From IMG/VR virus record IMGVR_UViG_3300042391_000580: a stretch of 64,000 nucleotides of DNA. The stretch is one strand, 5' to 3'. Shown in pieces: positions 7,551-57,271 of the stretch. The notes beneath the pieces were generated by a model. That model did no database searches. It had not been told where the DNA came from and saw nothing but the letters and a program-made list of their open reading frames with translations. A program made the translations under genes and the position numbers. How positions within the stretch are numbered: position 1 is the stretch's first letter; each line of letters opens with the position of its first letter. The DNA comes from a virus (lineage: Duplodnaviria; Heunggongvirae; Uroviricota; Caudoviricetes).

Positions 7551-8363
7551 ATGAAAAAAGTTTTAGCAGTATTTTTAGTGTTAGTAGTAGCAGTGGGTTT
7601 TACCTCTTGCGAAAGAGTTGCTCCAAACTATTATGGAGTGTTGATGGAAAATTATGGTAAGGATGGCAAGGATGACTATTCTAAACAACAAGGTAGAGTA
7701 TCTACAATTTCTCCGGGGACAGAGTTATTTCAAGTACCGGCATGGGAACAACGTGGTAAGTTTACTAATGATGAGGGACAAGACAGAACTTTACAAGTAA
7801 AAGCAGCAGATAACACAGCCTTTACATCTAAGCCGTTATATTCATATAAAGTAATTCAAACTAAAGTTGTAGATGTAGTATTCCAAAATTCTAGGTTAGG
7901 TTCTGGAGATGATTTTATGAATGCCTTACAAGACAATGTATTGGAGCCAAGAATCTATGATATTATAAAAGAAGCATCAAGAAGTTATACAACAGAGCAA
8001 TTAATGGCTAATGGTGGTTCATTAAGATTTGAGCAATACGTTCAAGATATAGTTACAAAAGAGTTTGAGAAAGCCGGTTTAGAATTAATTAGTTTCAGTT
8101 TAAACTTAGACTTCTCTAATAAAGTAAAAGCTAAGATTGACTCAAGAAACGAGGTAAATACAAATATCTCTGTTTTGGATCAGCAAATTGCAGAACAAAG
8201 AAAACGTAATGAATTGGAAGTTTTAAGAACTGAGCAAAATAAAATTAGAAGTGCCGGTATTACTCCACAAATATTACAAGAACAAGCAATTCGTAAGTGG
8301 AATGGTCATTTACCAACTACTTATGCAGGAGGTGGCTTACCATTTGTTAAGGCAGTAAACTAA
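7551..8363 (+). CDS. lipoprotein (270 aa) with C-terminal coiled-coil; possible SPFH-like
   Basis: lipobox VGFTSC after signal peptide MKKVLAVFLVLVVA. Confidence 0.5.
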   Translation: MKKVLAVFLVLVVAVGFTSCERVAPNYYGVLMENYGKDGKDDYSKQQGRVSTISPGTELFQVPAWEQRGKFTNDEGQDRTLQVKAADNTAFTSKPLYSYKVIQTKVVDVVFQNSRLGSGDDFMNALQDNVLEPRIYDIIKEASRSYTTEQLMANGGSLRFEQYVQDIVTKEFEKAGLELISFSLNLDFSNKVKAKIDSRNEVNTNISVLDQQIAEQRKRNELEVLRTEQNKIRSAGITPQILQEQAIRKWNGHLPTTYAGGGLPFVKAVN

Positions 8364-8901
8364 TAAAAAATAACCTGTACCCCCGAAAAACTCGTATTTA
8401 AAGATAAGCAGGTTAGCTCTTATATAAAGGGGTATTAGAATAAGAGCAAAGGTGGTGTACCCAACCCGAAATGGGTGCTATTGGTCTCTGAAGAAAAGGG
8501 AACGCTTGTGAGTGGCAGTACATAACTCTCAAAAATAGCTAAGCTGTGTAAAGCACCAGATCTGATAAACTGTGTGAAGCTATGGGTTAAACATTGAATA
8601 CCTTTGTAAGAGAACCGTTATCTGCACCTTTTAGGTAGTAGAGAGCATACGTCATACTTCCATAAAGATACTATCAGTAATGGTAGATGTGTTGTTCCCT
8701 TGAGAAAGGAATGGTTAATAAAGAGATTAGACTTAATTGTTTGCTATCTACAACACAAATGAGTTCTCAGCAAGTAGTTATGAGATTCGAGCCTGCAAAG
8801 TTCTTTGAAGTAACTATGTGACCCTACTCTTGGTCCGGCTACGTAAGCTGATGCCGCTTACATGAAAGAGGGTGCTAAATTTTAATTAAAATAAATATAA
8901 A

Positions 8902-9075
8902 ATGAAAAAGATTTTCTTTTTAATGGCTATTATTTTAGCCTTTAGCGTAACAAGTTGTAAACAAGCTAGTGAAGTAAATTCAGATGCAACAACAGATTCA
9001 ACAGCAGTTCAAGTTGATTCAAATGGTGTAGACACAACAAGTGTTGATACTACTGCTTTAGATACAGTTAAATAG
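8902..9075 (+). CDS. small secreted lipoprotein (57 aa, T/D/V-rich) embedded in RNA island
   Basis: MKKIFFLMAIILAFSVTSC lipobox; below track cutoff; own translation. Confidence 0.35.
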   Translation: MKKIFFLMAIILAFSVTSCKQASEVNSDATTDSTAVQVDSNGVDTTSVDTTALDTVK

Positions 9076-9248
9076 TATTTAAGGATCGAGGCTTCTTCCT
9101 TTGAATGAAGCTACGCTACCGAAATGATAAGTGCCCTCACACGAGGGATTTTTAAAGAATGTTTTGGGTATGTTGGAAGGGGAAACAAGCACTGTGATCA
9201 GTGTGGCATAGAGTTGAGAGTCCGGATGTCAAAACTCTTTTAAGTCCT

Positions 9249-9341
9249 TGAGGGTTCGAGTCCCTCTACCTAATCGAAATAGTTTGTTGATGTATTATTG
9301 AATTTTGTTTGGACGGGAGTTCGATTCTCCCCACCTCCACA
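9249..9341 (+). ncRNA. ssrA: candidate tmRNA acceptor piece (T-arm GGGAG-TTCGATT-CTCCC + 3' acceptor strand CACCTCC-A) of a permuted two-piece ssrA
   Basis: close to E. coli tmRNA 3' end (UUUCGGACGCGGGUUCAACUCCCGCCAGCUCCACCA vs UUUGGACGGGAGUUCGAUUCUCCCCACCUCCA); pairs with GGGGGUG at 9437 with G3-U70. Confidence 0.4.
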
Positions 9342-9436
9342 AGAGTTTCCTTGAACTATAAACAAGGTGGTGGAGTCGCTGAGAAATCAGAGACCTAACA
9401 GTTTGAGGGAGCGTTCTGTTTAAAAACGTAACAATA

Positions 9437-9576
9437 GGGGGTGACTGGTTTTGACAGCAATCTAGTAGGTAGTAAGTAGAACTAATTTCAAATTTAAACG
9501 ACAACGTTTACCAACTTGGTGGGGTGCAAAGAATTGCAGCTTAACCACGCCTAGGGAGAGCGACATCTCCCTAACT
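9437..9576 (+). ncRNA. ssrA: candidate tmRNA coding piece: 5' tRNA-like strand GGGGGUGACUGGUUUUGAC, tag-like ORF ending GCA GCU UAA (..RIAA-stop) at 9542-9544, post-stop hairpin TAGGGAGA/TCTCCCTA
   Basis: 5' end resembles tmRNA consensus GGGGNUGAUUCUGGAUUCGAC; tag region shares AAACGAC...GCAGCUUAA with E. coli ANDENYALAA coding sequence; lies downstream of its own T-arm, implying permutation. Confidence 0.4.
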
Positions 9577-9650
9577 GGTCCTATAGCTCATTCGGTTAGA
9601 GCAACTGACTCATAATCAGTAGGTGCTTGGTTCGATTCCAAGTGGGACCA
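9577..9650 (+). tRNA. tRNA-Met (anticodon CAU; elongator type, could alternatively be tRNA-Ile2/lysidine)
   Basis: hand-folded cloverleaf: acceptor GGTCCTA/TGGGACC (one G-U), D-stem GCTC/GAGC, anticodon stem ACTGA/TCAGT with loop CTCATAA, T-stem CTTGG/CCAAG loop TTCGATT, discriminator A; CCA not encoded. Confidence 0.85.
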
Positions 9651-9913
9651 CTTAGCAAGGCATAAACGATAAGGAATACTCGTCACAGGTTTATGTTGAG
9701 TTGCAGACGGGCCGAAATGCTTACGGTTAACAAGGCTTAACTCATAAAGTCTAGAGAGCAAAATCTAACGAGTGACTGATGGAAAGACATCAACATGGGA
9801 AAGTAGCAGATAAGGTCGCCCCTGAACTGTGAGTGGGACTAATGTGACGGTCAATCGTAAAGGCTCAAGGTACGTAACAAGTAGTAGTTGGTTGGAGTAA
9901 GTGACTTAGCATC

Positions 9914-9937
9914 GGGGGTTCGATTCCCCCCTTTTTT
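9914..9937 (+). terminator. terminator closing the RNA island; hairpin mimics a tRNA T-arm
   Basis: GGGGG-TTCGATT-CCCCC followed by C TTTTTT. Confidence 0.5.
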
Positions 9938-9958
9938 ACAAACTAAAAATTATATAAA

Positions 9959-10156
9959 ATGTCAGTATTTAAAGTGTCTTTTATGGGAACTCGAATAGGA
10001 GAACATAATGGTAAGCCTAGTAAAATAAGATTTAAAGTGCAGGATGAAGAAGGTGAAGATTATTACAGTTCAGGGGGAGAACAAAAAATAGAATTTGATA
10101 TAGACTTAGAGTACAAGGATGTAACCAATTTAAAAATAACAGAAGTTTATGAATAA
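9959..10156 (+). CDS. hypothetical protein
   Basis: ORF track. Confidence 0.45.
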   Translation: MSVFKVSFMGTRIGEHNGKPSKIRFKVQDEEGEDYYSSGGEQKIEFDIDLEYKDVTNLKITEVYE

Positions 10157-10179
10157 AGTAAAAACAAAATTAATATAAG

Positions 10180-10485
10180 ATGAACGAACTATTTAAAAAA
10201 ACAAAAACAGACAGATTTCAGTTAGATGAAAACTACTTCCTAGAGTCAGATGGCTACCATGGGCTAACACTATTGTTTGAACAAGCTAGGATGAAGAAGA
10301 AAAAAGATGGTAGTGGGGAAGAAGAATACCTTTATGTAGACAAATGGTACTACCCTAAAGTATCAATGGTTCTCCATAAGTACTTAGAACTTGTAACAAA
10401 AGATACAAAATCTATAGAAGAATTAAGAGAAGTTGTGTTAAGGGTAGAAACAAAAATTGACTCCATTCGAGAGTCATGGAAATAG
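10180..10485 (+). CDS. hypothetical protein
   Basis: ORF track. Confidence 0.45.
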   Translation: MNELFKKTKTDRFQLDENYFLESDGYHGLTLLFEQARMKKKKDGSGEEEYLYVDKWYYPKVSMVLHKYLELVTKDTKSIEELREVVLRVETKIDSIRESWK

Positions 10486-10495
10486 TTTAACTAAT

Positions 10496-10526
10496 TTGCA
10501 AAAATAATTCTATTTTTGTATCTTTG
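10496..10526 (+). promoter_or_regulatory. promoter TTGCAAAAATAA...TATCTTTG upstream of nrdBA
   Basis: TTG 10496-10498, TATCTTTG 10519-10526. Confidence 0.5.
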
Positions 10527-10540
10527 TACCTTAATATCGG

Positions 10541-10572
10541 AGTACCTCTTTTAATTAGGAGGTACTTTTTTT
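10541..10572 (+). terminator. intrinsic terminator-like hairpin between promoter 10496-10526 and nrdB start
   Basis: AGTACCTC (10541-48) / GAGGTACT (10559-66) 8-bp stem, 10-nt loop, then T7. Confidence 0.5.
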
Positions 10573-10600
10573 ACCTTAATTTTTAAAATAATAAAAACCA

Positions 10601-11578
10601 ATGAGCATCTTCACAGAAAGAAAAAACTACAAGCCGTTTGAGTACAGCGGTATTACAGACCCCTTAATTAATGCAATGTGGGCCGGACACTGGACTCATA
10701 ATGAGTTCAATTTTTTGAATGACATTCAAGATTACAAAACAAAATTAACAGTAGAAGAACAAGGAGTAGTCAAAAGAGCTATACTACTAACTTCACAAGT
10801 AGAAGTTGCTGTAAAATCTTATTGGTCTAACATTGGGAAGTTACTCCCTAAGCCTGAGATAGCTGACATGGGGGCAGTATTCGGAGGGGTAGAAGTTGTC
10901 CACTCAAAAGCATATGCAGAGATACTATCAAAACTTGGATTGGAAGATCAATTTGAAGATTTGTTCTCAGAGCCGGTTGTTGTTGGGAGAGTGAATTATT
11001 TAACAAAGTATATCAACAAGATATACAAAAATGACCATAAGAATATTTGCTATTCTTTAGTTTTATTTACATTATTCACAGAATATACTGCTTTATTTTC
11101 ACAATTCTATACTATTCTAGGATTTAATAGGTTCAGAGGAGTGCTTAAAGATGTAGCAAATGTAGTGCAATATACTTCGAAAGAGGAAAACTTACATGCA
11201 GAAGGTGGTATTGCCTTACTTAACCAAATTAGAGCAGAGCACCCAGAATTATTTGATGCAGAGTTTGTTGAGAAGATTAGACAAGAAGTACTAGAGGCTT
11301 ACAAAGCTGAGGCAGATTTGATTGACTGGATTCTAGAGGGTTATGAAAATGAGTTTTTATCCCCTAAGATTTTAAAAGGTTATGTACAAATTAGATTAAA
11401 CGATGCCCTAGAGAAAATTGGTATGGGAACTTCTTTTGAGATTGATCCTCAGATTAGGGAAGAAACTCTTTGGATGGAAGAAGAAGTTTATGCAAGTGCT
11501 TTGACAGACTTCTTTCACAAAAAACCTATTGATTATAGTAAAAAAATGAAAACGTATAACGAAGAAGATTTATTTTAA
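10601..11578 (+). CDS. nrdB: ribonucleotide reductase class I small (beta) subunit
   Basis: di-iron ligand ExxH motifs VEVVHSKAYAE and SKEENLHAEG; size and adjacency to alpha subunit. Confidence 0.85.
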   Translation: MSIFTERKNYKPFEYSGITDPLINAMWAGHWTHNEFNFLNDIQDYKTKLTVEEQGVVKRAILLTSQVEVAVKSYWSNIGKLLPKPEIADMGAVFGGVEVVHSKAYAEILSKLGLEDQFEDLFSEPVVVGRVNYLTKYINKIYKNDHKNICYSLVLFTLFTEYTALFSQFYTILGFNRFRGVLKDVANVVQYTSKEENLHAEGGIALLNQIRAEHPELFDAEFVEKIRQEVLEAYKAEADLIDWILEGYENEFLSPKILKGYVQIRLNDALEKIGMGTSFEIDPQIREETLWMEEEVYASALTDFFHKKPIDYSKKMKTYNEEDLF

Positions 11579-11579
11579 G

Positions 11580-13226
11580 ATGGAAGATTTTAATTGGTTA
11601 AACAAAGACTCAAGAGCATTTCTTGAAAAAGACTACTTATTAGAGGGGGTTACCCCTGAAGAACGTATCAGACAAATAGCAGATACAGCAGAAAGTGTAC
11701 TAGGTATTGAAGGATTTTCAGATAAATTCTACGGCTACATGGCTAAAGGATTTTATTCATTAGCTACACCGGTTTGGATGAATTTTGGCCTTGATAGAGG
11801 GTTACCTATATCTTGTTATGGAATTGACATTCAAGATGACACAATGGATATTCTGAGAGCAACAGCTGAGATTGGTGCCTTAACTAAAATGGGAGGTGGT
11901 ACTGCCGGTTACTTCGGTAAGTTAAGAGGTAGAGGTGCACCTATTCGTAACAATGGAGTTTCAAACGGAGCTGTTAGTTTCTTACTACCTTTCCAAACAA
12001 CAACAGATGTTATTACACAAGGTCAAGCAAGAAGAGGTTATTTTGCTGCTTACTTACCTGTTGATCACCCAGATATTGAGGAGTTTTTACAATGTAGGAA
12101 TGAAGGTAATGTTATTCAAAATATTGCTCTAGGAGTTTGTATCTCAGATGAATGGATGGAGTCAGCAGAGGCCGGGGATAAAGATAAAAGAAAAATCTTA
12201 GCCAAGATACACCAAAAAAGAGCAGAGTCTGGGTTTCCTTACATCTTCTTTACCGGTAATGTAAACAAGAATAAGCCTAAAGTGTACAAAGATAAAGAGA
12301 TGGATATTAACCACTCTCAGATGTGTACAGAAATCTTAGAATATACAGATGAGCATAAATCATTTGTTTGTTGTTTATCTTCCTTGAACCTTTTACATTG
12401 GGATGAGATGGTTCAAACAGATGCAGTTGAAACTTTGGCTTACTTCTTAGATGCAGTTTATTCTGAGTTTATACAAAAGGCAGATGGTATTCCATTTATG
12501 GAGAAAGCTTTGTTGTTCGCAAAAGAACACAGAAGTATCGGTATTGGAGTTCTTGGATGGCACAGTTTCTTACAATCTAAACTTATTCCTTTTGAGGGCT
12601 TAGAATCTAAGATGTTGAATGCCGAGATTTTTAGAACTATCAACGATAAAAGTTTAATTGCAAGTATGCAGTTAGCAACTATGTTTGGGGAGCCGGAAAT
12701 GCTGAAAGGTTACGGACAAAGATTTACAACTAGACTAGCAATTGCCCCTACAACAAGTTCGTCTTTTATCCTTGGACAAGTTAGTCCAAGTATTGAGCCA
12801 TTACAGTCTAATTACTTTATTAAAGATCTAGCTAAAGGTAAGTTTGTTTATAGAAACCCTTACTTAAAGAAGTTATTGAAAGATAAAGAGCAGGATACTC
12901 CGGAAGTATGGAACAGCATCTTATTAAAAGGTGGTTCAGTACAACATTTAGATATTCTTGACGAAAAAGAAAAATTAGTATTCAAAACATTTGGTGAGAT
13001 AAGCCAATTAGAAATAGTACAACAAGCTGCCCAAAGACAGAGATTTATTGACCAAGGGCAGTCTTTAAACCTAATGATACACCCTGATACTTCCTTGAAA
13101 GAAGTCAATGCGTTGTTCTTTGAGTCTTGGAAGTTAGGTATAAAAACACTTTATTATCAAAGAAGTGTGAATATGGCCCAAGAGGTTAGCCGTAATCTTA
13201 TGGATTGCTCTAGTTGTGAGGGGTAA
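11580..13226 (+). CDS. nrdA: ribonucleotide reductase class I large (alpha) subunit, short form without ATP cone
   Basis: active-site NHSQMCTEI (cf SNLCTEI) and CCLSSLNL, C-terminal CSSCEG redox pair. Confidence 0.85.
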   Translation: MEDFNWLNKDSRAFLEKDYLLEGVTPEERIRQIADTAESVLGIEGFSDKFYGYMAKGFYSLATPVWMNFGLDRGLPISCYGIDIQDDTMDILRATAEIGALTKMGGGTAGYFGKLRGRGAPIRNNGVSNGAVSFLLPFQTTTDVITQGQARRGYFAAYLPVDHPDIEEFLQCRNEGNVIQNIALGVCISDEWMESAEAGDKDKRKILAKIHQKRAESGFPYIFFTGNVNKNKPKVYKDKEMDINHSQMCTEILEYTDEHKSFVCCLSSLNLLHWDEMVQTDAVETLAYFLDAVYSEFIQKADGIPFMEKALLFAKEHRSIGIGVLGWHSFLQSKLIPFEGLESKMLNAEIFRTINDKSLIASMQLATMFGEPEMLKGYGQRFTTRLAIAPTTSSSFILGQVSPSIEPLQSNYFIKDLAKGKFVYRNPYLKKLLKDKEQDTPEVWNSILLKGGSVQHLDILDEKEKLVFKTFGEISQLEIVQQAAQRQRFIDQGQSLNLMIHPDTSLKEVNALFFESWKLGIKTLYYQRSVNMAQEVSRNLMDCSSCEG

Positions 13227-13252
13227 TTAATTTTATTATTTTTTGTTTTTAG

Positions 13253-13276
13253 CCCTCCAGAAATGGGGGGTTTTTT
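13253..13276 (+). terminator. intrinsic terminator after nrdA
   Basis: CCCTCC-AGAAAT-GGGGGG then TTTTTT. Confidence 0.6.
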
Positions 13277-13304
13277 ATTTTATTAAAAAAAGTTTAACTT
13301 TTTC

Positions 13305-13335
13305 TTGCACATGTTAAATATTCTCCATATCTTTG
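13305..13335 (+). promoter_or_regulatory. promoter TTGCACATG...TATCTTTGCA
   Basis: TTG 13305-13307, TATCTTTG 13328-13335. Confidence 0.55.
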
Positions 13336-13362
13336 CAAAGTGAAATTAAAACATTAAAAATT

Positions 13363-13569
13363 ATGAAAAAATTATTATTACTTTTAATAGGGGTTGCTAC
13401 ATTATCTTGCTCCTCAGTAGAACAAAGAATAAAAGAGTATTCTTACACAAACGAGTGGTACTATATGGGTACTGAAAGATACCAAGTTTACAAAACAGAA
13501 AATGGTAGAAGGTATATTGTTGTGTTGAACAACAAACAAACTAATTTTAAACGTAAATATATTAAATAA
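13363..13569 (+). CDS. small lipoprotein (68 aa)
   Basis: ATG at 13363 (track start 13333 is an alternative TTG start codon inside the promoter); MKKLLLLLIGVATLSCSS lipobox. Confidence 0.5.
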   Translation: MKKLLLLLIGVATLSCSSVEQRIKEYSYTNEWYYMGTERYQVYKTENGRRYIVVLNNKQTNFKRKYIK

Positions 13570-13575
13570 TAAGAT

Positions 13576-14112
13576 ATGTATAAATTTAACAAAGACAGCT
13601 TAATTTACGAGAGAGTAAACATTTGGAAGTATGTTGGTATGATTGCCTTTTCTTTATTGATAGTATTCACATTAAGCTCTTTTGTTTTGAAAGAGGTTGT
13701 AATAGTCAACGCAGAAAAAGAAGTTATTTTAAAAACCAATGAGGACTTCTCTAAAGATAAGTTATTATTAGAAGTAGAAAAATACTCCTTTAAGTACCCC
13801 GATATTGTGATGGCCCAGGCTATTCTAGAAAGTGGGCATTTTAAATCTCCGGTATTCAAACAAAACCACAATATGTTTGGTATGAGACAGGCATTACGTA
13901 GAATAAGCACTGCACAGGGCTCAAATCTTAATCATGCGTATTATACTAGTTGGAAGGATTGCGTAGCTGACAGAGCCTTATATGAAGCCCAGTACCTATC
14001 TAAGCTGACAAGAGAACAATACTTTTCTTACTTAGACCAAGTTTATGCTGAGGGTGGAGGTTATAGCAAACTATTAAAGCAGGTAATACAAAAAATGAGC
14101 CATGATAAATAA
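13576..14112 (+). CDS. membrane-anchored peptidoglycan hydrolase, glucosaminidase (FlgJ/mannosyl-glycoprotein endo-beta-N-acetylglucosaminidase) domain
   Basis: N-terminal TM helix then AQAILESGHFKSPVFKQNHNMFGM, classic glucosaminidase-domain motif. Confidence 0.65.
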   Translation: MYKFNKDSLIYERVNIWKYVGMIAFSLLIVFTLSSFVLKEVVIVNAEKEVILKTNEDFSKDKLLLEVEKYSFKYPDIVMAQAILESGHFKSPVFKQNHNMFGMRQALRRISTAQGSNLNHAYYTSWKDCVADRALYEAQYLSKLTREQYFSYLDQVYAEGGGYSKLLKQVIQKMSHDK

Positions 14113-14704
14113 TCTAAATTCAATAAGGCCGTTGCTTAATTACGAAAGTAAAGGAGACTTCTACATGTTGTATATCTTTAAGCGTAAAAAAGACCAACCG
14201 GAAGGAGAAAGAGATAATCATCAATCTGTAAGGACAATCAAGACATACTGTATTGAAAGTATTGAGCACCTAGAAAGACGATATGATGAGATAATTCAAT
14301 TATGTGAGATGTTCAAAGCAAGGGCTTATATTCATGTTCAAAAACAAAACCATTTTGATGTATCATTAAGTATGATGTCTGCTTTGGCACAAAAGATTCA
14401 GAATGGAAACCATAATCAGAAGGGGCTGTTTGATTCAGTTGTAGGGCAAATAAAAACGCAAGAGAAAAGGTGGATTGTTGACGTTGATACTAAAGATCTT
14501 CAAGATTTAGTTGAGGTTGCGGAATTTATCTACAATCTTAGACCTATCGGACATAAGATTATAACCACACTCCCAACTAAAAACGGATTTCATTTAATAA
14601 CAGAGAGGTTTGATGTTAAATCATTTGGTGATAGATACCCAGAAATTGATATACAAAAGAAAAATCCAACACTGCTTTACTATCCAAAAAGCTTAGAAAA
14701 TTAA
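14102..14704 (+). CDS. hypothetical protein (200 aa)
   Basis: ORF track; no confident motif. Confidence 0.45.
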   Translation: MINNLNSIRPLLNYESKGDFYMLYIFKRKKDQPEGERDNHQSVRTIKTYCIESIEHLERRYDEIIQLCEMFKARAYIHVQKQNHFDVSLSMMSALAQKIQNGNHNQKGLFDSVVGQIKTQEKRWIVDVDTKDLQDLVEVAEFIYNLRPIGHKIITTLPTKNGFHLITERFDVKSFGDRYPEIDIQKKNPTLLYYPKSLEN

Positions 14705-14709
14705 AAATT

Positions 14710-15186
14710 ATGAGTACATTTTTTATATCCGACCTACATTTAGGTCATGAAAATATGGCTATCAAAAGAGGGTTCTCTTGTGCAGATGAGATGAACGAGC
14801 ACATCATTAAGTGTTGGAACTCTGTGATAAGTAAAAGAGACTTAGTTTACATACTTGGTGATGTTACAATGGAGAAAGTCAGAGATTATCCTATACTTCT
14901 ACAGCTTAAAGGGGAGAAGACAGTTGTTCTTGGTAACCACGATGAACCTCAGCACGCTAGAGAGCTGCTTAAGTATGTGAACAAAGTTGCAGGAATGATT
15001 GACTATAAAGGTAATTCTATACTTACACATTGCCCTATACACCCTAGTCAATTAGACTATAGATACAGCTATAATATTCATGGGCATGTCCATGAGAACA
15101 GCTTAGACGATCCTAGGTACATAAATGTATCATGTGAGGTAGTTGATTACACACCAGTAGAATATTTAAAATTAATAAATAAATAG
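14710..15186 (+). CDS. small calcineurin-like metallophosphoesterase
   Basis: SDLHLGH, GDV, GNHDE, GHVHE motif series. Confidence 0.7.
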   Translation: MSTFFISDLHLGHENMAIKRGFSCADEMNEHIIKCWNSVISKRDLVYILGDVTMEKVRDYPILLQLKGEKTVVLGNHDEPQHARELLKYVNKVAGMIDYKGNSILTHCPIHPSQLDYRYSYNIHGHVHENSLDDPRYINVSCEVVDYTPVEYLKLINK

Positions 15187-15187
15187 T

Positions 15188-15472
15188 ATGAAAATAGCAA
15201 CTAAAGAATTTGATATTGTAGCACATGATGAGTCTTTCGGTTATTTAATAACAGAGACATATTACATTATGGGGGTATCTATATGGTTACGTTACCATTA
15301 TGCCTCAGAACAATTACAAACACCCTTCGCAAAGATAGAAGAGGCAATCTACGCAATAACTGTGTTAGAAGATGAGTATGAATTAACTAATGTAAATTTT
15401 AAAGAAAACTTAGTGCTGTATGTACTATTAGTAATTTTTGTTCTTCTTATAATAAACAACACTTTTAAATAA
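15188..15472 (+). CDS. hypothetical protein with C-terminal TM anchor
   Basis: ORF track; LVLYVLLVIFVLLII hydrophobic tail. Confidence 0.4.
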   Translation: MKIATKEFDIVAHDESFGYLITETYYIMGVSIWLRYHYASEQLQTPFAKIEEAIYAITVLEDEYELTNVNFKENLVLYVLLVIFVLLIINNTFK

Positions 15473-15512
15473 TAAAAGCAGAAGAGCCAACTGTAAACCG
15501 GCAAAATTAATT

Positions 15513-15719
15513 ATGGAAATATTTGTATGGGCAATGGTAATATTGTCATTTGCAGCATTAATTTACTTTACTGTTAAACCTTATTTTAAAGGTCTTGACT
15601 ACAGTAAATTTAAGCAACCTGATTTTTCTATCGAGGAAGAGGTATTGGAAAAACCGGCTCCTAAGAAAAAGAGATACTACAAAAAAAGAAAGCCTAAAAA
15701 TGATAAAGGCGAAAAATAA
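15513..15719 (+). CDS. small membrane protein, N-terminal TM and basic tail
   Basis: MEIFVWAMVILSFAALIYF then KKKRYYKKRKPK. Confidence 0.4.
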   Translation: MEIFVWAMVILSFAALIYFTVKPYFKGLDYSKFKQPDFSIEEEVLEKPAPKKKRYYKKRKPKNDKGEK

Positions 15720-16236
15720 AGTGTGTATCGAATGTGGTAGAGATGATCAACCTTGGTTCTCAAAAAAGAGATGCCGAGGTTGTTCTATCATCCAGAATGC
15801 AAAGTCATCAATGACAGTAGTCAGAAAAGCTATAAAAAAACAAACAGATAAAAACAAGGAATATCGTAAATCGCAATCAGCAATACGTGACCCCTATTTT
15901 GAATATCACATAGCTAATTGTACAAGCTCTGAGCATAGTGGTGTGAATATATTTTTCCCTACTAGAGCAAATTGCTGTCATCTTTTTGACAAGGCTAGGC
16001 ATCAAAGTGTTCAAGGGAATTTAATAAATTGTGTTTATCTTACCTTAGATGAACATACTAGGTTTGATCAGTTATTGTATAGCCATCAGTTTGATAAACT
16101 ATCTAAAGAGTTCCCAAATGCTTGGGCACATGCTGTAAATAGAATGAAATTGTTATTACCAGAAGTAAAAGAAGAAACAAAATTTAAACATAGATTCGAA
16201 GAATGGATACAATCAAAACAGTCAGAGATAGACTAA
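15700..16236 (+). CDS. Cys-rich zinc-binding protein (CIECG...CRGC); internal ATG of track ORF 15595..16236
   Basis: start chosen to avoid 125-nt overlap with upstream ORF; CxxC pairs. Confidence 0.45.
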   Translation: MIKAKNKVCIECGRDDQPWFSKKRCRGCSIIQNAKSSMTVVRKAIKKQTDKNKEYRKSQSAIRDPYFEYHIANCTSSEHSGVNIFFPTRANCCHLFDKARHQSVQGNLINCVYLTLDEHTRFDQLLYSHQFDKLSKEFPNAWAHAVNRMKLLLPEVKEETKFKHRFEEWIQSKQSEID

Positions 16237-16350
16237 ATCATGTAAAGTCAGATTTGGCTACATTAAAACAGCCAAAGATGGGTAAGAGTCATTTTGATAG
16301 TCTTAGGATATGGGAGTTGGAACAAGAGAAAAAAGTTTTAGAAGAAAAGC

Positions 16351-16381
16351 TTGCAGAATTAAAAAACAATTCATAACTTTG
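16351..16381 (+). promoter_or_regulatory. promoter TTGCAGAATTAAAA...TAACTTTGCA
   Basis: TTG 16351-16353, TAACTTTG 16374-16381. Confidence 0.55.
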
Positions 16382-16412
16382 CAAAAAATTTATTAACAAT
16401 AAAAAAATTAAT

Positions 16413-16682
16413 ATGTATTACAATACTACAAATGAATCAGCAGAACAATTAAAAACGTTCAAAGGTAAAGCAACAAAGCAAGAAAATGAAATTTTGCAGT
16501 TGTTCAAAAGAGATAGTTTTTTGTCACCCTCAGATGTACAAAAAGAATTTCAAAACTACCCCCTAACTTCAGTTAGACGTGCAATTACTAACCTAACAAT
16601 AGCAGGGCTTTTAGAAAAAACTGCTGACAAAAGACCGGGTATCTATGGAAGAAACGAGTGTGTTTGGAAATATAAGTGCTAA
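16413..16682 (+). CDS. putative winged-HTH DNA-binding protein
   Basis: SPSDVQKEF...TSVRRAITNLTIAGLLEK helix-turn-helix-like segment; promoter 16351-16381 upstream. Confidence 0.4.
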   Translation: MYYNTTNESAEQLKTFKGKATKQENEILQLFKRDSFLSPSDVQKEFQNYPLTSVRRAITNLTIAGLLEKTADKRPGIYGRNECVWKYKC

Positions 16683-16903
16683 CAATGAGTAAAGCATACG
16701 AAGAAAGAAAACAATGGTTCTTAGATAGAGTAGGCAAAAGAGTATTTAGAGAATCAAATGGTTGTACCTGTGGGGTATGTGAACATAATCAAAAGAATGG
16801 GATAGTTATTACAAGTGATATGCATGCCTTATATATGCTAGATATGGAGGGTATGAGTAATATACCGGAAGAATCAGACCACCCATTTAAATACAGAGAT
16901 TAA
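16676..16903 (+). CDS. hypothetical protein (CxxC...CxxC)
   Basis: ORF track. Confidence 0.4.
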   Translation: MLTMSKAYEERKQWFLDRVGKRVFRESNGCTCGVCEHNQKNGIVITSDMHALYMLDMEGMSNIPEESDHPFKYRD

Positions 16904-16904
16904 T

Positions 16905-17198
16905 ATGAAAATAGGAATTGGAGAACACTGTTTTGGTTCATACGTTAGTGTAGATGATACTAACTTATGTAATGATGAGTATGTAGACTTAGAACTACAA
17001 AGAGAAGGTAGGATAATAATTTTATCTGAATTAACAAAAAACATAGATAACATACCTGCATACTATTGGAAAGAATTAGCAGAAATGGCTATGTCAAATA
17101 ACGAGAGTTTTGAAGTAGACCAAGAAGAGTCTTTTCATGATACTTGTGAACAATGTGGTAATTGGAATAACCATACAACGTATAACAAAAAACAATAA
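16905..17198 (+). CDS. hypothetical acidic protein
   Basis: ORF track. Confidence 0.4.
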   Translation: MKIGIGEHCFGSYVSVDDTNLCNDEYVDLELQREGRIIILSELTKNIDNIPAYYWKELAEMAMSNNESFEVDQEESFHDTCEQCGNWNNHTTYNKKQ

Positions 17199-17203
17199 AA
17201 GTA

Positions 17204-17449
17204 ATGAGAGGTACAATCAGAAAAGACCAAGACGGTTGGTCAGTAGTATACTTCGTAACAGCTGAGGATTGTGATGCAGTAGCTAGAGTAGAGATGAAGC
17301 TACATAAGGAAGATCATGAGCATGTAAAACATGGAGATTTAGTAGACTTTGAAGCAGTAAAAGTTGGTAAAAAACTTGTAGCTAAGCTAGAAAGAGTGAC
17401 TACTCACAAAAGAGAAATAAACGATCATTTAAAACAAGTAGTACTATGA
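17204..17449 (+). CDS. hypothetical protein
   Basis: ORF track; ATGA overlap with kinase gene. Confidence 0.4.
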   Translation: MRGTIRKDQDGWSVVYFVTAEDCDAVARVEMKLHKEDHEHVKHGDLVDFEAVKVGKKLVAKLERVTTHKREINDHLKQVVL

Positions 17450-18144
17450 TTATAGGTTTGTCAGGCCGTATGGGCAGCGGTAAAGATACCGTTGGTAAAA
17501 TTATACAATATCTTTTATGTAAGAATGTGGGGGATATTAGTCTAGAAGATGTGGTTTCGTGTAATGACCATGATTGGTGGTTAGATGAACAATCTAAATT
17601 TGAAATCAAGAAGTTTGCTGGTAAATTAAAAGCTGTTGGTAGCTTACTTACAGGGATACCTACAGAAAAGTTTGAAGACCAAGAGTTTAAAAAGACAGAC
17701 TTGCCAAATGAGTGGGTTTATATAGAAAATGGGTATGCTGCTAGAAATATGACAGTTCGTGATTTCTTACAGAAACTTGGTACAGAGGCAATGCGTAACG
17801 GCTTACATACAAATGTGTGGGTCAACGCTTTGTTTGCAGATTATAAAGAAGAGCTCGACCCCTATCATTTTAAATCTCATATAAACGAGTCTACATTAAA
17901 ATATCCAAATTGGATTTTGACAGACATGAGGTTTCCAAACGAACTAGAATCTGTTGTAGAAAGAAATGGTATTACTATTAGAGTAACAAGACCGGTTGAA
18001 AAAAGCAAAACAACTGCTAGATTACACCCCTCGGAAACATCTCTTGATAAAGCTGAGTTTGATTATGAGATTGTAAACGATGGCACTATCAAAGAGTTAG
18101 CAGAAAAGGTGCAAATAATTTTAATAAAAGAAGGCATACTATGA
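17446..18144 (+). CDS. deoxynucleoside monophosphate kinase (T4 gp1-like)
   Basis: N-terminus MIIGLSGRMGSGKDTVGKII parallels T4 gp1 MKLIFLSGVKRSGKDTTA P-loop. Confidence 0.6.
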   Translation: MIIGLSGRMGSGKDTVGKIIQYLLCKNVGDISLEDVVSCNDHDWWLDEQSKFEIKKFAGKLKAVGSLLTGIPTEKFEDQEFKKTDLPNEWVYIENGYAARNMTVRDFLQKLGTEAMRNGLHTNVWVNALFADYKEELDPYHFKSHINESTLKYPNWILTDMRFPNELESVVERNGITIRVTRPVEKSKTTARLHPSETSLDKAEFDYEIVNDGTIKELAEKVQIILIKEGIL

Positions 18145-26905: not shown

Positions 26906-27125
26906 TATATGAGAAAAAATAATTTTATATTTGATTGTTTACTATTTCAAAGCAAAGATAGATTACATATCTTTTTAGGCATTTGGGTATGGTTGCAATT
27001 TATAATTGGGGTGCTTGAAATACTTATAAGCCATGAATAAAAAAGATTTTTACAGAAAAGATTATTTAACATACAAAAAAAAGTACAATCTTTTATGTAA
27101 TATGGAGCCAATAAATTTAATTTGT

Positions 27126-28479: not shown

Positions 28480-31400
28480 TTATTCTTCTTCTGATATTTC
28501 TGCCCAGCCTCCTTCTTTTAGATCATTTTCATCTATAAGGATAGCTATTGGTATTAATGACTCATCTTTATTATAGTAGTCATATGTATCTCTCAAAGAT
28601 TTAAGGTTACCGGCATTCCATAAATCAAATGTAGGTTTTGCTCCAGTAACGTTCTTCAAGAAGTATATTTGTTGTTTTGTCATACCTTTAAACCTACCTC
28701 TATCTTCTACTTCTGTGTCGAATGCTCTGGTGATGTTAAATAAGTTTTCTAATTTTTGTACTCCTACTAGAGGCTCTTTTACAGAACTATAAAATTCACC
28801 AATTACCCCAAACTGTGTTGAAGATGTTTCTGTGGTTACCCTTTCTAACATATAAGCCGCAAATTGTGCTGCCCACATATCTTCTTCATCATCTGCCCAG
28901 TGTCCAACTCCAATTGTTAATAAAAACAATACTGAAAGGAATGCAAAATCAACCATTACTCTCCTGATGTTTTCTCTTTGTACATCATCACCATTTAAGT
29001 ACTGGCTTTTTAGTTCACCTAATGCAGATTTCATACCTCCTTTTTGTAAACCGTTGTTAAAATTTTGTACAAAAAAGTTATAAACTGAGAAGTAAGTACC
29101 CTCTTCCATTTGACCGGTTTGTAGGTTTAAGTGTCTTCTCTTGAACCTATTTGCTGCAGATATAGCTAACCACCCTTTGTGTGTCATTGCAAATCTACCT
29201 AGTACGTCTCTTTGCATAGAGGTTCTTTCCTCGTTGGTAATCATACCATCAATTCTTTCTACAACTTTCTTTAATTTAGTTATAACCCCAATCTCAATGT
29301 TTCTAAAATCTTTTTGAAACTGCTCATCGTTAGTTCTACCCATATCTCTAGCTAAACTATCATAGTCATAAGCTACTGTTCCGTCTTTTGGTGACATGTA
29401 GTTGTACAGGGTTTTATCTCTAAGTAAGTCCCATTGATTTGCCAGGTCTTTTTTAGTAGCTGACGGATTTACTGTTTTATATAAGGATTCAAATTTTTTA
29501 GAATCTACTAATTTACCTTCATATATTCTAAATCCATATAACTGAGAAAGCATTGCTTTAGACAAAGGTGCAAAGTTACCTGCTGTGTGTAGTATATACT
29601 TTGATTTAGCTAATACTCTAGGCCCTTTTGAGTACATAGAGTTTTCAAATTTATTACTTAAATCAAATACACCAAAATATTCTCCATATATAGATAGCTT
29701 AGATTTTGAGTCTATTTCTAAACTTTCCTTCATTGCAGGAAAAGCTATCTTTCTAAACTCTTTTGAAGCTAAATTCATAGATCCAGAATCTACATACTGA
29801 CCAACATATTTTTCTATAATCATAGATGCCTCAGCTGTAAGCCATGAAGTAACTGGTACTACAACATTCAATGCAAGAGAGTTATCTCTAATAAGTTTAT
29901 GCAACATATTTATTATCTTAGTTACATCAATTTGCCCTAGTACTGGTACAGTTACTCTCCAGTTTTTTCTTTCTTTTATACCAAATAAATTATGGTCGTA
30001 GTAAGATTGAAACATTTTGTAAGTGTTTGTAGATGTAGCATCTTTACCTTCTGGATAAGCTCTCTTTAAAACTAAATCATTAAGTGTAGCAAACTCAGAG
30101 AATCTTTCTTTTCTAGCTTTATATAACTGAGATTGTTGTGCAAATAACATAGAGCTATAGAATAAATCTGTAGATACGTCTGTTTCTTCTTCTAATTTTT
30201 TCAAAAAGTACTTCGGTATAATTTTCATGTTTGTTGCTTTTACTAAAGCCTCTCCCTCTACTTCTTCACCAAATGCTTGCTCATCTACTCTAAATCTAAC
30301 AGCATCTCTCCACCACTCTTTTATAGTCCCTCTTTTACCTTTTATTAAATCATTAGCTTTTTCTAGGCCGGTTTTTGAAACTTGTGGTGCTAAGTATAAG
30401 TTGTGTGTACCTAGTTCCCCATAAGATCTTAAACTTTCTCTTTGGAACTCCATGTATTCCTTGTACAAACTAAATAGTTTTTGATTAGTTGTAGCTTGAA
30501 TATTGCCTTCATTATCTAATATAGGGTTATTGTCAGCGTCTAACACAGGTCTAAAAAGGTCTACGAAGTTTTTATTCAAGTACTTACTAAGTTTAGGTTG
30601 TTTAGAACCACCTTCAAAATCCTCTTTGTAATTTGGGTTCTTAAACTTAATTTCCCCCATTTCGTAGTAAGAAAAATTATTACTAACTTTTACATCTCTT
30701 CTTTTGTTTAGCTCTGTTACTAATGTATACACATTCTGATTTCCATTTTTTAATTGGTCGTAAAAGTTTTGTAAACCTACTGGGGCAAATGCTTTATAAT
30801 AAGGTGCTAATTTTGTCTCTGCATATTTTAATTTTGCTGCTGGAATATCATCCTTATTTAATTCAGACAATTCGTTTATCCCCACAGTTCTTAGTATTAA
30901 TGCTTTGTGTCCCTCTGATACTCTTAACCCTTTTAATACATCATCTAAAGCGTCTGAAAATTGTCTTGCTTTCTTAGCATTTTCAACTGTCATATTTTCA
31001 AGAGCAAATTTGTATTTGCCTTCAGCAGTTGTTATTCTTGCGTCAGCTAACATATCGTAGTAAGACTGATTAGGCGTAGACTCAGAAACTCTATTCTCCT
31101 CTGTACCTAGACTAACTTTATCTTTAAATATAGTGTATAGCTCTACGGCCATTCTGTCTATTTCTTCAGATAATTCTATAACTTTACTTCTTTGTTGCGT
31201 TGACATTTCTTCAGCCATCGTGTTAGTAAAGTTTCTAGAGTCTTGGTATTGTTTTAATATAGATTTTCTAGATTGTAGTTTGTCTTTATAAGATTTTATT
31301 TTCTCTATCCAAGCTTGCTCTGAATTTGGGTCTTGGCTATATGAATCTATATAAGTCATCATGCTTTCTGATACATCAAAGTTATTCCAGAAATCATTAG

Positions 31401-34203: not shown

Positions 34204-34223
34204 ATTTTTTTATTATTATAATG

Positions 34224-34254
34224 CAAAATTAGTATTTTTATTTGTCATATCCAA
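34224..34254 (-). promoter_or_regulatory. minus-strand promoter TTG-N20-TAATTTTGCA for the 1907-aa gene
   Basis: plus-strand CAAAATTA 34224-34231 and CAA 34252-34254; same 23-nt register. Confidence 0.55.
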
Positions 34255-34271
34255 ATACATTAAAAAGTTAA

Positions 34272-34296
34272 GGCTACTTTTCAGCAGCCTTTTCTT
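34272..34296 (-). terminator. terminator after 2469-aa gene (minus strand), GNRA-type loop
   Basis: minus-strand GGCTGCT-GAAA-AGTAGCC then TTAACTTTTT; plus strand also has T-run. Confidence 0.45.
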
Positions 34297-34297
34297 A

Positions 34298-37200
34298 TTA
34301 TTGACAGTTGAAATATTCATCGTCTATCTGTTTTAATTCTTCTTTAGAATAGTAATTTTTTGATGTCTTAAACACCTCTGGGCTATTTTCCAGGTATTGG
34401 TACTTGTTAAAGTTTACATCTGACAAAGGTTTTTCTATACCAGTTAGTTTAAAGTTAGGGTCTACTGAAGGCAGTTTGTTGTAAAACTTAACGTTCCCTG
34501 CTTCGTATATCATTTCAAAAACCCCTTGTGTTGTTCTTACAAATGTATCTGTTTCATTCTTTACAGCTAATACCCCATCTTCTATGTATCTGTAATCTCC
34601 GGATATTTTCTTAGCACTTTCAGGATTATTTGCAAAAAACTCTCTTTGGCTTGTTTGGCTGTCATAGTCTTCAAATACTAACTCTTCTGATGTCATTCCT
34701 AAATTCAAATTCTTAGATATTGCATCGTAGTCTGCCAAGTCTTTTTCAAATTCTAATGGGATAGACATTATTGCTTCCTCTTTAGATAAAGGGTCTTTTT
34801 CTACTAATTCTATTCCTTTTCCTGTAACCTTGAAGTACTTATTGTTTGTCTCTAGTATAAATCTATTGAAGTCTTTTACAAACTCTGTAACCAAATACTC
34901 TGGGCTAGATATTACACTACCTAAACTATCTGTTGATACTTTTATAGGAGTCACTACTAATGGGAAGCCAAAGAACTTTTTATACAAATATATCTTAGCC
35001 AGCTTATCAGGGTCTACTTCGTAATCTGCTACTTCAAGATTTGTTACTTCTTTTTCTACAAAGCTTCTTAAGTCTTCAATATTAGCTACTTCATCTGGTA
35101 ACATTTCAGGATACTCTAGCATTGTATCGTAAAGCTCCTCTAAGCTCTGCTCCTCTGTTTGTCTATAAATATCCCCTTGCTTTTTGACTAAACCAAAATT
35201 ATCAAACATTTGATACTCCGACATATCTGATTCAACAACTGTATCAAATTCATTATCTGTTTCTATTACAGCTGATTCTTCTGTGCTTGTATCAAATAAC
35301 TCTTTATAAATAGTAGAGTAGTTAATTATATTTTCCTCAGTTGGTCCTGTTTCTAGTAGATTTTCCATAGCGTCTAAAAACGCAAGTATATCTTCTCTAC
35401 TATGAGATAACACTTTAGTAGGAATGTCTCTTAGGTCAATACCGTTTGTCATAGCTTTCTTTTTAATAGAGGCTAATAATTTTACTACTGCATTAGGGTT
35501 TTCGTCCCAAACTTCTTCAGAAAACTCTTCGTTTATATATCTAATTTCCTCAGATAATTTAGAATTTTCTTCGTCAATCAATGTATTAGCTACAATGTTT
35601 TCTATGTCTTCTGCCTTATCAACTAACACCCCGTCTTTTGTAACCTTTATATTAACTAATTTATGATTCTTAGCTATATTATCTACTGAAGATTTAAAGT
35701 TAGAGTCTTTTGCATATTTATTGCTAAGATCTGGTAACAAATTATCTGAGATCTCTTCTTCAGAAATACCAGCTATATCTCTAGCTAACTCTGCTTCAAC
35801 TATAAATGGGTTTGCTATTTCTTGTTTTCCAAATATGTTTAAGCTTGTTCCAGTAAGTGTTATAAAGTTTTTATTGTATTCTATCTCAAAAGGTTCTGTA
35901 TTTTTTAATTTTAAATAAGCTTCTTTTATACTTCTTTGTAAGTCTAATGAGCTCATTATTTTTGTTGCCTCATACTTATTAAACACCCCACCTCTTTGTA
36001 AAGATACTAAATTAAAAGATATAATACCAGATTTTGTAATAGCACTTTCTAATTTTTCTAAAAGCTCCGATGAAGAGTTTACTCCAAGTGCCATAGCTGC
36101 ATTTCTTGCAACAACTTGGTCCTCTAATGATAAAGACTCTGTAGAATTATTTTTAAATTGCATCAAATCTTTAATCGAAGGCTCTCCGTTTTCATCATAA
36201 CCATTTGGTGCAAGCTTTCTCGCTGGTCTTTGCATTTCAAAATCAGATGTCTTTTTATACCCAAGTGATGTGTAGAACTTTTCAAGTCCGGCATTAGTAG
36301 TGTTTTTATCTCTACTAGAAATAGTCAATACTGTACTTTTACCTATTGAGTCTGTGTATTTTAAAGCTGTATTAAAAGCTTCTCTTGCTCTACCCTGGCC
36401 TCTAAATTCTTCTGGTGTTTCTACCAATTCCATTTCTATTTTGCCAGTAGGTTTTTCAGTAATTGGGTTTACTTCATTTCTAAAATAAACTTTACTTCCA
36501 TTTACATCTGCAACCATTCTTTCTCCAGCACTTTTTATGTTTAGTTCAGAGACCCAAGAAGGTAATAATCCTACTTTTTGTTCTGCAAAACTCATCATAT
36601 CATATACTTGGTTAGTCAAGATTTTAGCTCCCTCTGTATCACCATTTCTTCTAAGTACTCTAGCTTTATCTCTTAATTCGAAAGCTTTGTCGTTTACTCC
36701 AGAGAAATTAACCCAAGAGTTTTGACCTCTAGTCTCAGTTGTCATGGCAAGTCTAGCTAATGGAGAGTACATTCTAGAGTGTATATTCCATGCGTTTTCT
36801 TCTCCTAATGCACCAAAACCATTTCCAAATTTAGCATGCCCAAAGAAATCGTGTACAAATCTAAATATGTCATTTGCTAATAAAGGCTCCCCATTTACAT
36901 CTTTAAACTTAGTCTTTTGTAAAAGTGGGTTGTCTTTTCTTTGTTGAGCTGTTATAGCCTCATCCCCAAATCCAGACTCCGTTGAGAAAATCTTCATACG
37001 CTTATTACCACGTAAGTCAGCTATCATGTCGGCAGAGTTTTCATACGGCTCCGAATTATTTATCTCTGGTTTGTAACCATAGCTTAGTATTTTTTTATAC
37101 TGGTCTACAGTCTCTTTTACCATAGCTTTGTAAGCCGCTTTTGTTTTAGTATCGTTTGGTGTAGGTTGCATCTTATCAAACTCAGCTGCTATACTTTTGC

Positions 37201-41707: not shown

Positions 41708-41727
41708 TTTTCTTAGTTTATTTTATG

Positions 41728-41758
41728 CAAAATTAGTACTTTTTTTTGTAAAAACCAA
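41728..41758 (-). promoter_or_regulatory. minus-strand promoter TTG-N20-TAATTTTGCA for the 2469-aa gene
   Basis: plus-strand CAAAATTA 41728-41735 and CAA 41756-41758. Confidence 0.55.
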
Positions 41759-41776
41759 ATTTGTTAACTATTTTTA

Positions 41777-57235: not shown

Positions 57236-57265
57236 CAAAATTAAGAAAAATTATTTAATTTACAA
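57236..57265 (-). promoter_or_regulatory. minus-strand promoter-like TAATTTTGCC (22-nt register) for the 732-aa operon
   Basis: plus-strand CAAAATTA 57236-57243; TTG one position off the usual register. Confidence 0.4.
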
Positions 57266-57271
57266 AATTAG

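Follow-up and report, generated by a model that had tools for sequence, protein, structure and literature searches.

A conserved promoter-then-terminator leader at the ribonucleotide reductase operon nrdBA of an uncultured phage lineage

The window analyzed here is a 64-kb stretch of the Caudoviricetes record IMGVR_UViG_3300042391_000580 (IMG/VR), out of a genome of roughly 105-130 kb. Its G+C content is 33%; the + strand carries the replication genes (1-28.4 kb), and the - strand the structural ones. The + strand also encodes nrdB and nrdA, the two subunits of ribonucleotide reductase (RNR), and a Pfam search of NrdA gave no match to the ATP-cone domain. In the leader of this operon, a promoter (P1) is followed directly by a hairpin and a run of T residues, all upstream of the nrdB start codon (Table 1). 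This promoter-terminator module is a real, conserved and nrd-specific feature of an uncultured phage lineage. The first-pass annotation had reported the promoter, hairpin and T7 run, and its coordinates were accurate to within one base; its spacings were each one too long, since the -7 box and the core stem are 14 nt apart (not 15) and the T-run ends 28 nt (not 29) ahead of the ATG.

The sequence of P1 agrees with the promoter motif of Bacteroidota sigmaA, in which a -33 element (TTTG or TTG) and a -7 box (TAnnTTTG) are ~19-20 bp apart (PMC7366714, PMC9723704). TTTG is found at 10495-10498, followed by a 20-nt spacer and TATCTTTG, and the site lies in an intergenic gap and faces the same way as nrdB, as the placement of a sigmaA promoter demands. 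The canonical pattern TTTG-N18-22-TAnnTTTG, which P1 fits, has 11 matches in the window vs. 3.55 expected. The 31-nt pattern TTGYR-N18-TANCTTTG, which fits 10496-10526 exactly, has eight matches vs. 0.10 expected, and none of 100 shuffles reached eight. All eight class-A promoters, as we call these matches (2604, 5105, 7129, 10496, 13305, 16351, 20782 and 24020), are intergenic and on the + strand. At the other seven, the ATG follows 19-31 nt past the -7 box with nothing between. A scan of the window for E. coli-type promoters gave matches at or below chance. Because the Bacteroidota promoter pattern is enriched, we infer that the host is a member of the Bacteroidota, with Flavobacteriia as the candidates. 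One relative (L118) is a contig in a Flavobacteriaceae metagenome-assembled genome (MAG).

The promoters of the window fall into two classes. Class A (TTGYR-N18-TANCTTTGCA, often with ATTAAAA in the spacer) precedes replication genes, and class B (TTTG-N19-20-TAATTTTGCA) precedes the structural genes of the - strand; the two are probably temporal classes. Besides class A, promoters were listed at 34255, 41759, 50034 and 57266 on the - strand and at 27125 on the + strand.

The core of the hairpin is an 8-bp stem with four G-C pairs and a 10-nt loop; counting the outer G·U and A-U pairs, it comprises 12 pairs. Its folding energy is -15.7 kcal/mol, and it is both the minimum-energy and the centroid structure. 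The fold was more stable than that of shuffled sequence for 10533-10580 (z = -4.1, with 1 of 200 shuffles as good) and for the longer segment 10527-10603 (z = -2.9). A consensus scan flagged the site as terminator-like, and its energy lies inside the range of the other intergenic terminators of the phage (-12.3 to -17.0 kcal/mol). No T-run follows the hairpin on the minus strand. The site thus combines the sequence marks of an intrinsic terminator, i.e. a G-C stem-loop, a one-sided U-tract and pairing that is kept in evolution, and it would be expected to terminate transcription in vivo. A second terminator-like hairpin, TGGACTCATAATGAGTTCA with ATTTTTT after it, is found 90 nt into nrdB (10691-10709, +) and is conserved in L001 (3091-3109); it may be a coincidence of the coding sequence.

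Table 1. Features of the nrdBA leader and operon in the window.
Feature	Coordinates	Strand	Remarks
Conserved motif TTTAACTAA	10486-10494	+	Directly upstream of the -33 element; adjoins the stop codon of the upstream open reading frame (10483-10485)
-33 element of P1, TTTGCA	10495-10500	+	TTGCA/TTGTA/TTGCG aligned in relatives
Second, overlapping box TATTTTTG	10511-10518	+	
-7 box of P1, TATCTTTG (TAnnTTTG)	10519-10526	+	N18 spacer from TTTGCA
Predicted transcription start region	10531-10534	+	From the -12 to -5 rule; A residues at 10533-10534
Terminator hairpin	10539-10568	+	Core arms AGTACCTC (10541-10548) and GAGGTACT (10559-10566); loop 10549-10558
T7 run (U-tract)	10566-10572	+	First T closes the core stem
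ACC directly past the U-tract	10573-10575	+	
A/T-rich unstructured leader	10573-10600	+	ACC, then 25 nt before the ATG at 10601
nrdB, RNR small subunit, 325 aa	10601-11578	+	PF00268, E = 2e-46
nrdA, RNR large subunit, 548 aa	11580-13226	+	PF02867 (4e-92), PF00317
Terminator closing nrdBA	13251-13276	+	G-rich stem, 4-nt loop, then T-run
Next class-A promoter	13305-13335	+	Usual terminator-then-promoter order; internal contrast to the nrdBA leader

We gathered relatives by NrdB from IMG/VR, JGI metagenomes and GTDB genomes; their contigs include IMGVR_UViG_3300047272_000350, IMGVR_UViG_3300042524_000214, IMGVR_UViG_3300010885_017276 and IMGVR_UViG_3300017754_002544. Thirteen distinct leaders (the window, L001, L038, L003, L002/L031, L105, L004, L043, L035, L039, L041, L005 and L033) share the order of -7 box, hairpin, T-run of six to eight residues and first gene of the nrd operon, and the NrdB proteins of these relatives are 76-96% identical. 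A MAFFT alignment that included L005 and L033 (A1) misaligned their stems; covariation was therefore counted in an alignment of the 11 alignable leaders without these two (A2). In A2, positions T1, A2, T5, T6, T7 and G8 of the -7 box were invariant; the box of L005 and L033 is TATCTTTA. The 8-pair core was paired in 96.6% of cells, as compared with 34-58% in slid registers, and three of the eight pairs had changed on both sides (U-A to C-G; C-G to U-A, via a U·G intermediate in L002; and C-G to A-U). None of 500 shuffles reached the observed covariation score. L005 and L033 have a stem unrelated to the others, with one further compensatory change between them (CCGAC/GUCGG vs. CCGGC/GCCGG). Altogether, four stem sequences occur across the clades, and the structure is kept while the sequence differs. 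Given the G·U pairs and the one-sided T-run, selection acts on the + strand RNA rather than on a DNA palindrome.

The surroundings of the module vary more than the module itself. The upstream gene is a 101-aa open reading frame (ORF) in the window, L001 and L039, an unrelated ORF in L003, L004, L105, L005 and L033, and an RNA gene in L031, and at every locus the upstream stop codon adjoins the promoter. The T-run ends 19-34 nt before the ATG in relatives with nrdB directly next and 71 nt before it in L041. In L041 (954-1499; also in L042), a homing-endonuclease ORF with HNH_3, NUMOD4 and helix-turn-helix domains is inserted between the leader terminator and nrdB and ends 5 nt ahead of the nrdB ATG; the module nevertheless stays at the head of the nrd operon. 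More distant relatives (L118, L046, L051, L052 and L006; NrdB 70-78% identical) have a hairpin and T-run 20-55 nt before the first nrd gene, with no recognizable box directly before the hairpin. In other lineages, such as L047 and L053-L055, nrdB lacks the module. In L118 (1318-1503), a promoter of the form TTTG-N20-TATATTTG lies ~80 nt upstream of the leader terminator. Between the two, the L118 RNA is strongly structured (-38.8 kcal/mol, z = -4.8), and Rfam gave no match to it; on this single sequence, it could be a true riboregulator. The module did not turn up at other genes: a search of IMG/VR for the promoter together with the stem family returned only five contigs, all known from the nrdB search.

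The motif TTTAACTAA is conserved while the promoter spacer drifts; it is kept in the window, L001, L002, L003, L035, L038 and L105, with variants in L004, L039 and L041. The 12-mer TTTAACTAATTT (10486-10497, +) recurs exactly at 57265-57276 (-), before the class-B promoter of ORF 55002-57200. With one mismatch allowed, it has 32 matches vs. 23.7 expected, so there is no overall enrichment.

A further conserved feature lies just past the T-run. Of 16 distinct leader terminators, drawn from seven lineages whose stems are unrelated, 14 have CC within 4 nt of the run, in the form (A)(A)CC; in these phages, none of 15 further terminator-like hairpins has it. Besides the window, we saw (A)(A)CC at the equivalent position in L001-L005, L033, L035, L038, L039, L046, L052, L105 and L118. 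A conserved second promoter was considered as its source and does not account for it. The (A)CC could tune escape from the U-tract, through ATP and CTP addition or through the stability of the downstream duplex, or it could mark a processing site.

We next compared the order of promoters and terminators across the window. We counted five intergenic terminators (10539, 13251, 20727, 34291 on the - strand, and 28445) when requiring 6 or more stem pairs, 3 or more G-C pairs and 5 or more consecutive T residues. Three junctions (13251/13328, 20727/20805 and 34291/34255) have the terminator first and the promoter ~40-55 nt later, and terminator 28445 lies where two gene blocks converge. The junction at 10539 is the only one in the window with the promoter first. 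No such leader was found at the dNMP kinase (17446) or MazG (18512) genes. A terminator stands at either end of the operon, and the promoter lies outside the 5' one. The terminator behind nrdA is kept in L001, L003, L004, L035, L005 and L033, and its terminator-then-promoter order is conserved in relatives. By the same criterion, the + strand has no other terminator between the start of the window and 10539; the hairpin is therefore the first stop for units started at 2604, 5105 and 7129. In addition, no locus has a second terminator between the upstream ORF and P1. These results bear out the suggestion of the first-pass annotation that the hairpin ends the upstream unit.

In Flavobacterium psychrophilum, the sigmaA -7 box spans -12 to -5 (PMC9723704). 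With this position, the predicted +1 of P1 is ~10531, which places the hairpin at about +9 to +38 and the end of the U-run at about +42. Across the leaders, the core stem would start at +9 to +12 in 11 of 13 and at about -1 in L005 and L033, and the U-run would end at +41 to +45, or at +31/+32 in those two. The unpaired RNA before the stem amounts to ~8-11 nt, and to none in L005 and L033, where 7-8 of 11 stem pairs remain in the predicted transcript. Given this box position, RNA from P1 would contain the complete terminator, and the expectation of the first-pass annotation that P1 transcripts run into it holds on the same condition.

The first-pass annotation had also raised attenuation, antitermination or an RNA-binding regulator that responds to dNTP demand, and proposed a comparison with models such as the NrdR box or the 2'-dG riboswitch. 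Its specific ideas of regulation found no support. The 0-11 nt before the stem are too few for a riboswitch, a T-box-like element or an antiterminator hairpin, which excludes them. Folded from the predicted start, all 13 leaders gave a terminator helix probability of 0.96-1.0, and with 60-200 nt of upstream RNA it held except in L002 at -200 (0.58) and L041 at -120 (0.02). Since there is no ATG between the predicted start and the nrdB ATG, there is no leader ORF, and leader-peptide attenuation is excluded. Rfam gave no match at the leader in an E-value scan of 9000-12000, in a gathering-threshold scan of the whole window or in six relatives, and these scans covered the 2'-deoxyguanosine (2'-dG) and cobalamin riboswitch families. 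NrdR boxes are 16-bp palindromes that often occur in pairs; the consensus ACACWATATWTWGTGT had 10 matches with up to 3 mismatches vs. 10.3 expected, none of them in 7600-17500. Two further candidates were rejected. Copies of TACCTTAAT flank the hairpin (10527-10535 and 10573-10581) and were considered as the parts of an antiterminator, but even L001 has not kept the upstream copy, and the helix probability stays at ~1 with 60-200 nt of upstream RNA in both the window and L001. The -7-like TACTTTTT in the 3' arm and U-run, considered as a sigma-pause or promoter element, is absent from the AGCACC clade and from L005 and L033.

The element is an example of an already known kind and works like a sensor-less promoter-proximal attenuator. 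Phage lambda Q acts at PR'-tR', and N at tL1/tR1. As at PR'-tR', the terminator here is close behind the promoter and ahead of the controlled operon, with a short default RNA and downstream genes reached by read-through. The lambda terminator, however, is ~194 nt downstream as compared with ~42 nt here, and in the window we identified neither a Q-like protein nor a Q-binding element or sigma-dependent pause site. The host RNA polymerase (RNAP) is also of the Bacteroidota sigmaA type. The likeness seen is one of architecture. Leader attenuators and riboswitches (trp and his leaders, T-box, 2'-dG, and cobalamin riboswitches before nrd genes) likewise have an intrinsic terminator between the promoter and the first gene. 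They differ in that their leaders must accommodate both a sensor and an antiterminator that competes with the terminator, and the phage leader has neither an ORF, an alternative fold nor an Rfam match. In the Bacillus subtilis pyrG leader, a terminator close to the promoter is overcome by reiterative transcription that is sensitive to CTP. This case is similar in its very short leader, a terminator near the start, a nucleotide-metabolism gene and the lack of a protein or aptamer sensor. It requires, however, a start-site G-run complementary to a pyrimidine-rich 5' arm, whereas the phage start is TTAATATC with no homopolymer run, and its relatives lack a G-run too. The leader lacks the marks of a riboswitch or cis antiterminator, of a leader peptide, of NrdR control and of pyrG-type control. 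In phage T4, early and middle units have terminators before downstream genes, including the nrd region, that are passed by read-through. T4 is similar in expressing nucleotide-metabolism genes partly by terminator read-through and in having homing endonucleases next to nrd genes (here in L041), but differs in host, promoter type and distances, and there is no sequence relationship. Finally, the 38-bp T7A1-tR2 unit, an artificial construct with a terminator ~38 nt from the start (roughly 42 nt here), was terminated with 33-38% efficiency by E. coli RNAP in vitro (PMC6978380).

Our preferred reading, which we hold tentatively and at somewhat less than even odds, is that the leader is a valve shared by two sources of transcription. 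P1, of the host sigmaA type, and the terminator (10496-10572) would act as one unit at the entrance of nrdBA. Polymerases from the long upstream unit and from P1 (~10531) would both transcribe the hairpin and U-run, where most complexes would be released; this would form the 3' terminus of the mRNA from upstream and yield a P1 RNA of roughly 42 nt. Only the read-through fraction would transcribe nrdB-nrdA, as far as the terminator at 13251-13276. As no cis RNA switch is encoded, this fraction would be set by the partial efficiency of the terminator itself, and the outcome would be insulated, low, fixed-ratio expression of RNR. The start position, termination in vivo and partial efficiency are predictions from sequence. 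The leader hairpins have loops of 6-12 nt in most cases (14 in L041, and 4 only in L118) and stem bases of A-U/G-C/U-A/A-U, whereas the post-nrdA terminators have loops of 4-6 nt and G-rich bases. The large loops and these stem bases are consistent with partial efficiency.

Several points weigh against a shared valve. The conserved (A)CC is left unexplained. In L005 and L033, the predicted start is nucleotide 2 or 3 of the stem, which may shorten the stem. The start and the 3' ends are predicted ones, and the efficiency of termination by a Bacteroidota RNAP is presumed. In addition, the same dosage could be had at less cost with a terminator ahead of the promoter, or simply with a weaker promoter. 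Finally, the conserved promoter-then-terminator order hints at something more, e.g. regulation in trans.

Such regulation is the basis of the best surviving alternative, which is possible but on the unlikely side. The terminator would be efficient, and a trans-acting antiterminator from phage or host would make RNAP terminator-resistant and so turn nrdBA on as a timed switch, much as lambda Q does at PR'-tR' or N at tL1/tR1. It might load at the TTTAACTAA/-33 region or at the nascent hairpin. The promoter-first order is found only at nrd and is kept across 24% NrdB divergence, as would be expected if P1 must be gated, and the motif before -33 is conserved while the spacer drifts. Furthermore, no cis switch is possible, so any regulation would have to act in trans, and a short terminated transcript resembles the logic of lambda PR'-tR'. 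However, among the 30 + strand ORFs tested from the 64-kb window, most of them unannotated, a Pfam search turned up no domain resembling those of antiterminators, sigma factors or NusG. The stems also differ between clades, and a sequence-specific RNA binder would have needed to co-evolve with them.

Alternatively, and rather less probably, the hairpin terminates the upstream unit and doubles as a 5' stabilizer: P1 transcripts would largely read through, and the hairpin would shield the nrdBA mRNA from 5'-end-dependent decay. The hairpin is the sole terminator of the upstream unit and lies 0-11 nt from the predicted 5' end in 13 of 13 leaders, at the very 5' end in L005 and L033. Nevertheless, we know of no mechanism by which a polymerase from P1 would ignore a terminator that stops a polymerase from upstream. 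An unpaired 5' tail of 8-11 nt, as in 11 of 13 leaders, is long by the rule for E. coli, and a perfectly conserved U-run is unnecessary for stabilization. Terminators also do work ~38 nt from a start site (PMC6978380).

A further reading, which builds on the (A)CC, is unlikely: the leader would be a regulatory valve without a sensor of its own, specific to phage RNR, in which read-through is set either by a novel Bacteroidota-phage antiterminator loaded at the promoter or kinetically by nucleoside triphosphate (NTP) pools. In the kinetic version, escape from the terminator would hinge on ATP and CTP addition at the (A)CC that follows the U-run. If so, RNR synthesis would be coupled to ribonucleotide supply without an aptamer.

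A second promoter past the hairpin is improbable. It would use a -7 box at 10572-10579, TACCTTAA (TACCTTTA in close relatives), and P1 would then make a short RNA or be irrelevant to nrdBA. In L001, L002, L003, L038 and L105, TACCTTTA lies 26-35 nt before the ATG, the usual distance from box to ATG. The window copy, however, deviates from TAnnTTTG at two key positions, its candidate -33 position is TTTT within the hairpin loop, and the box is confined to one subclade, being absent from the AGCACC clade (L004, L043, L035, L039 and L041) and from L005 and L033. We consider it very improbable that P1 and the terminator make up a gene whose tiny RNA product of ~42 nt has a function in itself. Small RNA genes do consist of a promoter with a terminator behind it (PMC7366714), but the module is always at the start of the nrd operon, and its conserved structure with four different stem sequences argues against a base-pairing RNA. 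Finally, the inverted repeat is hardly a DNA operator for a dimeric repressor, since its typical roadblock position (about +9 to +38) is outweighed by G·U (T·G) pairs that break the DNA palindrome yet keep the + strand RNA pairing, by stem sequences that are not conserved and by a downstream T-run that is the invariant feature.

Almost nothing is known of the timing and dosing of genes in Bacteroidota phages, and this module offers a compact, conserved test case of ~80 bp. The shared valve predicts a terminated RNA of roughly 42 nt and RNR expression that depends on read-through. Regulated read-through would implicate a new antitermination factor, or else control by NTP kinetics, in a phylum whose transcription apparatus is unusual. 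Constitutive read-through would make the leader a natural promoter-plus-leaky-terminator dosage part for Bacteroidota synthetic biology. Either way, the data provide promoter and terminator rules for an uncultured phage lineage.

No close cultured relatives with transcript data were found; a megablast gave no match, and the phage collection has no cultured relative. The best cultured-phage matches were 47% identical for NrdB and 43% for DNA polymerase. A host origin of the leader was rejected, since a scan of genome contigs gave two matches only; one is a 136-kb contig of a Flavobacteriaceae MAG that might itself be phage DNA. The - strand of the window carries three giant ORFs (28480-47356) of 1907, 2469 and 1859 aa. 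The 2469-aa ORF (34298-41707) was scanned in the context of crAss-like virion RNAPs and gave only PHROG matches of unknown function. A tandem repeat at 60960-61817, with a 291-nt unit in ~2.7 copies of 75-78% matching, lies in ORF 60135-63929 (-, 1264 aa) of the structural region; its product is probably a series of repeated domains.

Ahead of the nrd region, an ORF-free stretch of 1.6 kb with higher G+C (8364-9958) contains a match to the permuted, two-piece transfer-messenger RNA (tmRNA) family RF04321 (64 bits vs. a gathering score of 47) and a tRNA-Met(CAT), with Rfam matches at 9282-9544 and 9577-9650. A T-arm-like GGGGGTTCGATTCCCCC followed by T6 lies at 9914-9936. ARAGORN predicted permuted tmRNAs in L001 (1420-1825), L003 (2172-2611) and L004 (516-975), and the ssrA-like tags of the tmRNAs predicted in relatives are DNVYQLGGVQRRFAA*, GDVYQLGGVQLRAVA* and DNVYQLGGVQLRAVA*. 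The stretch has the look of a tmRNA-like gene that the phage encodes and that its lineage has kept.

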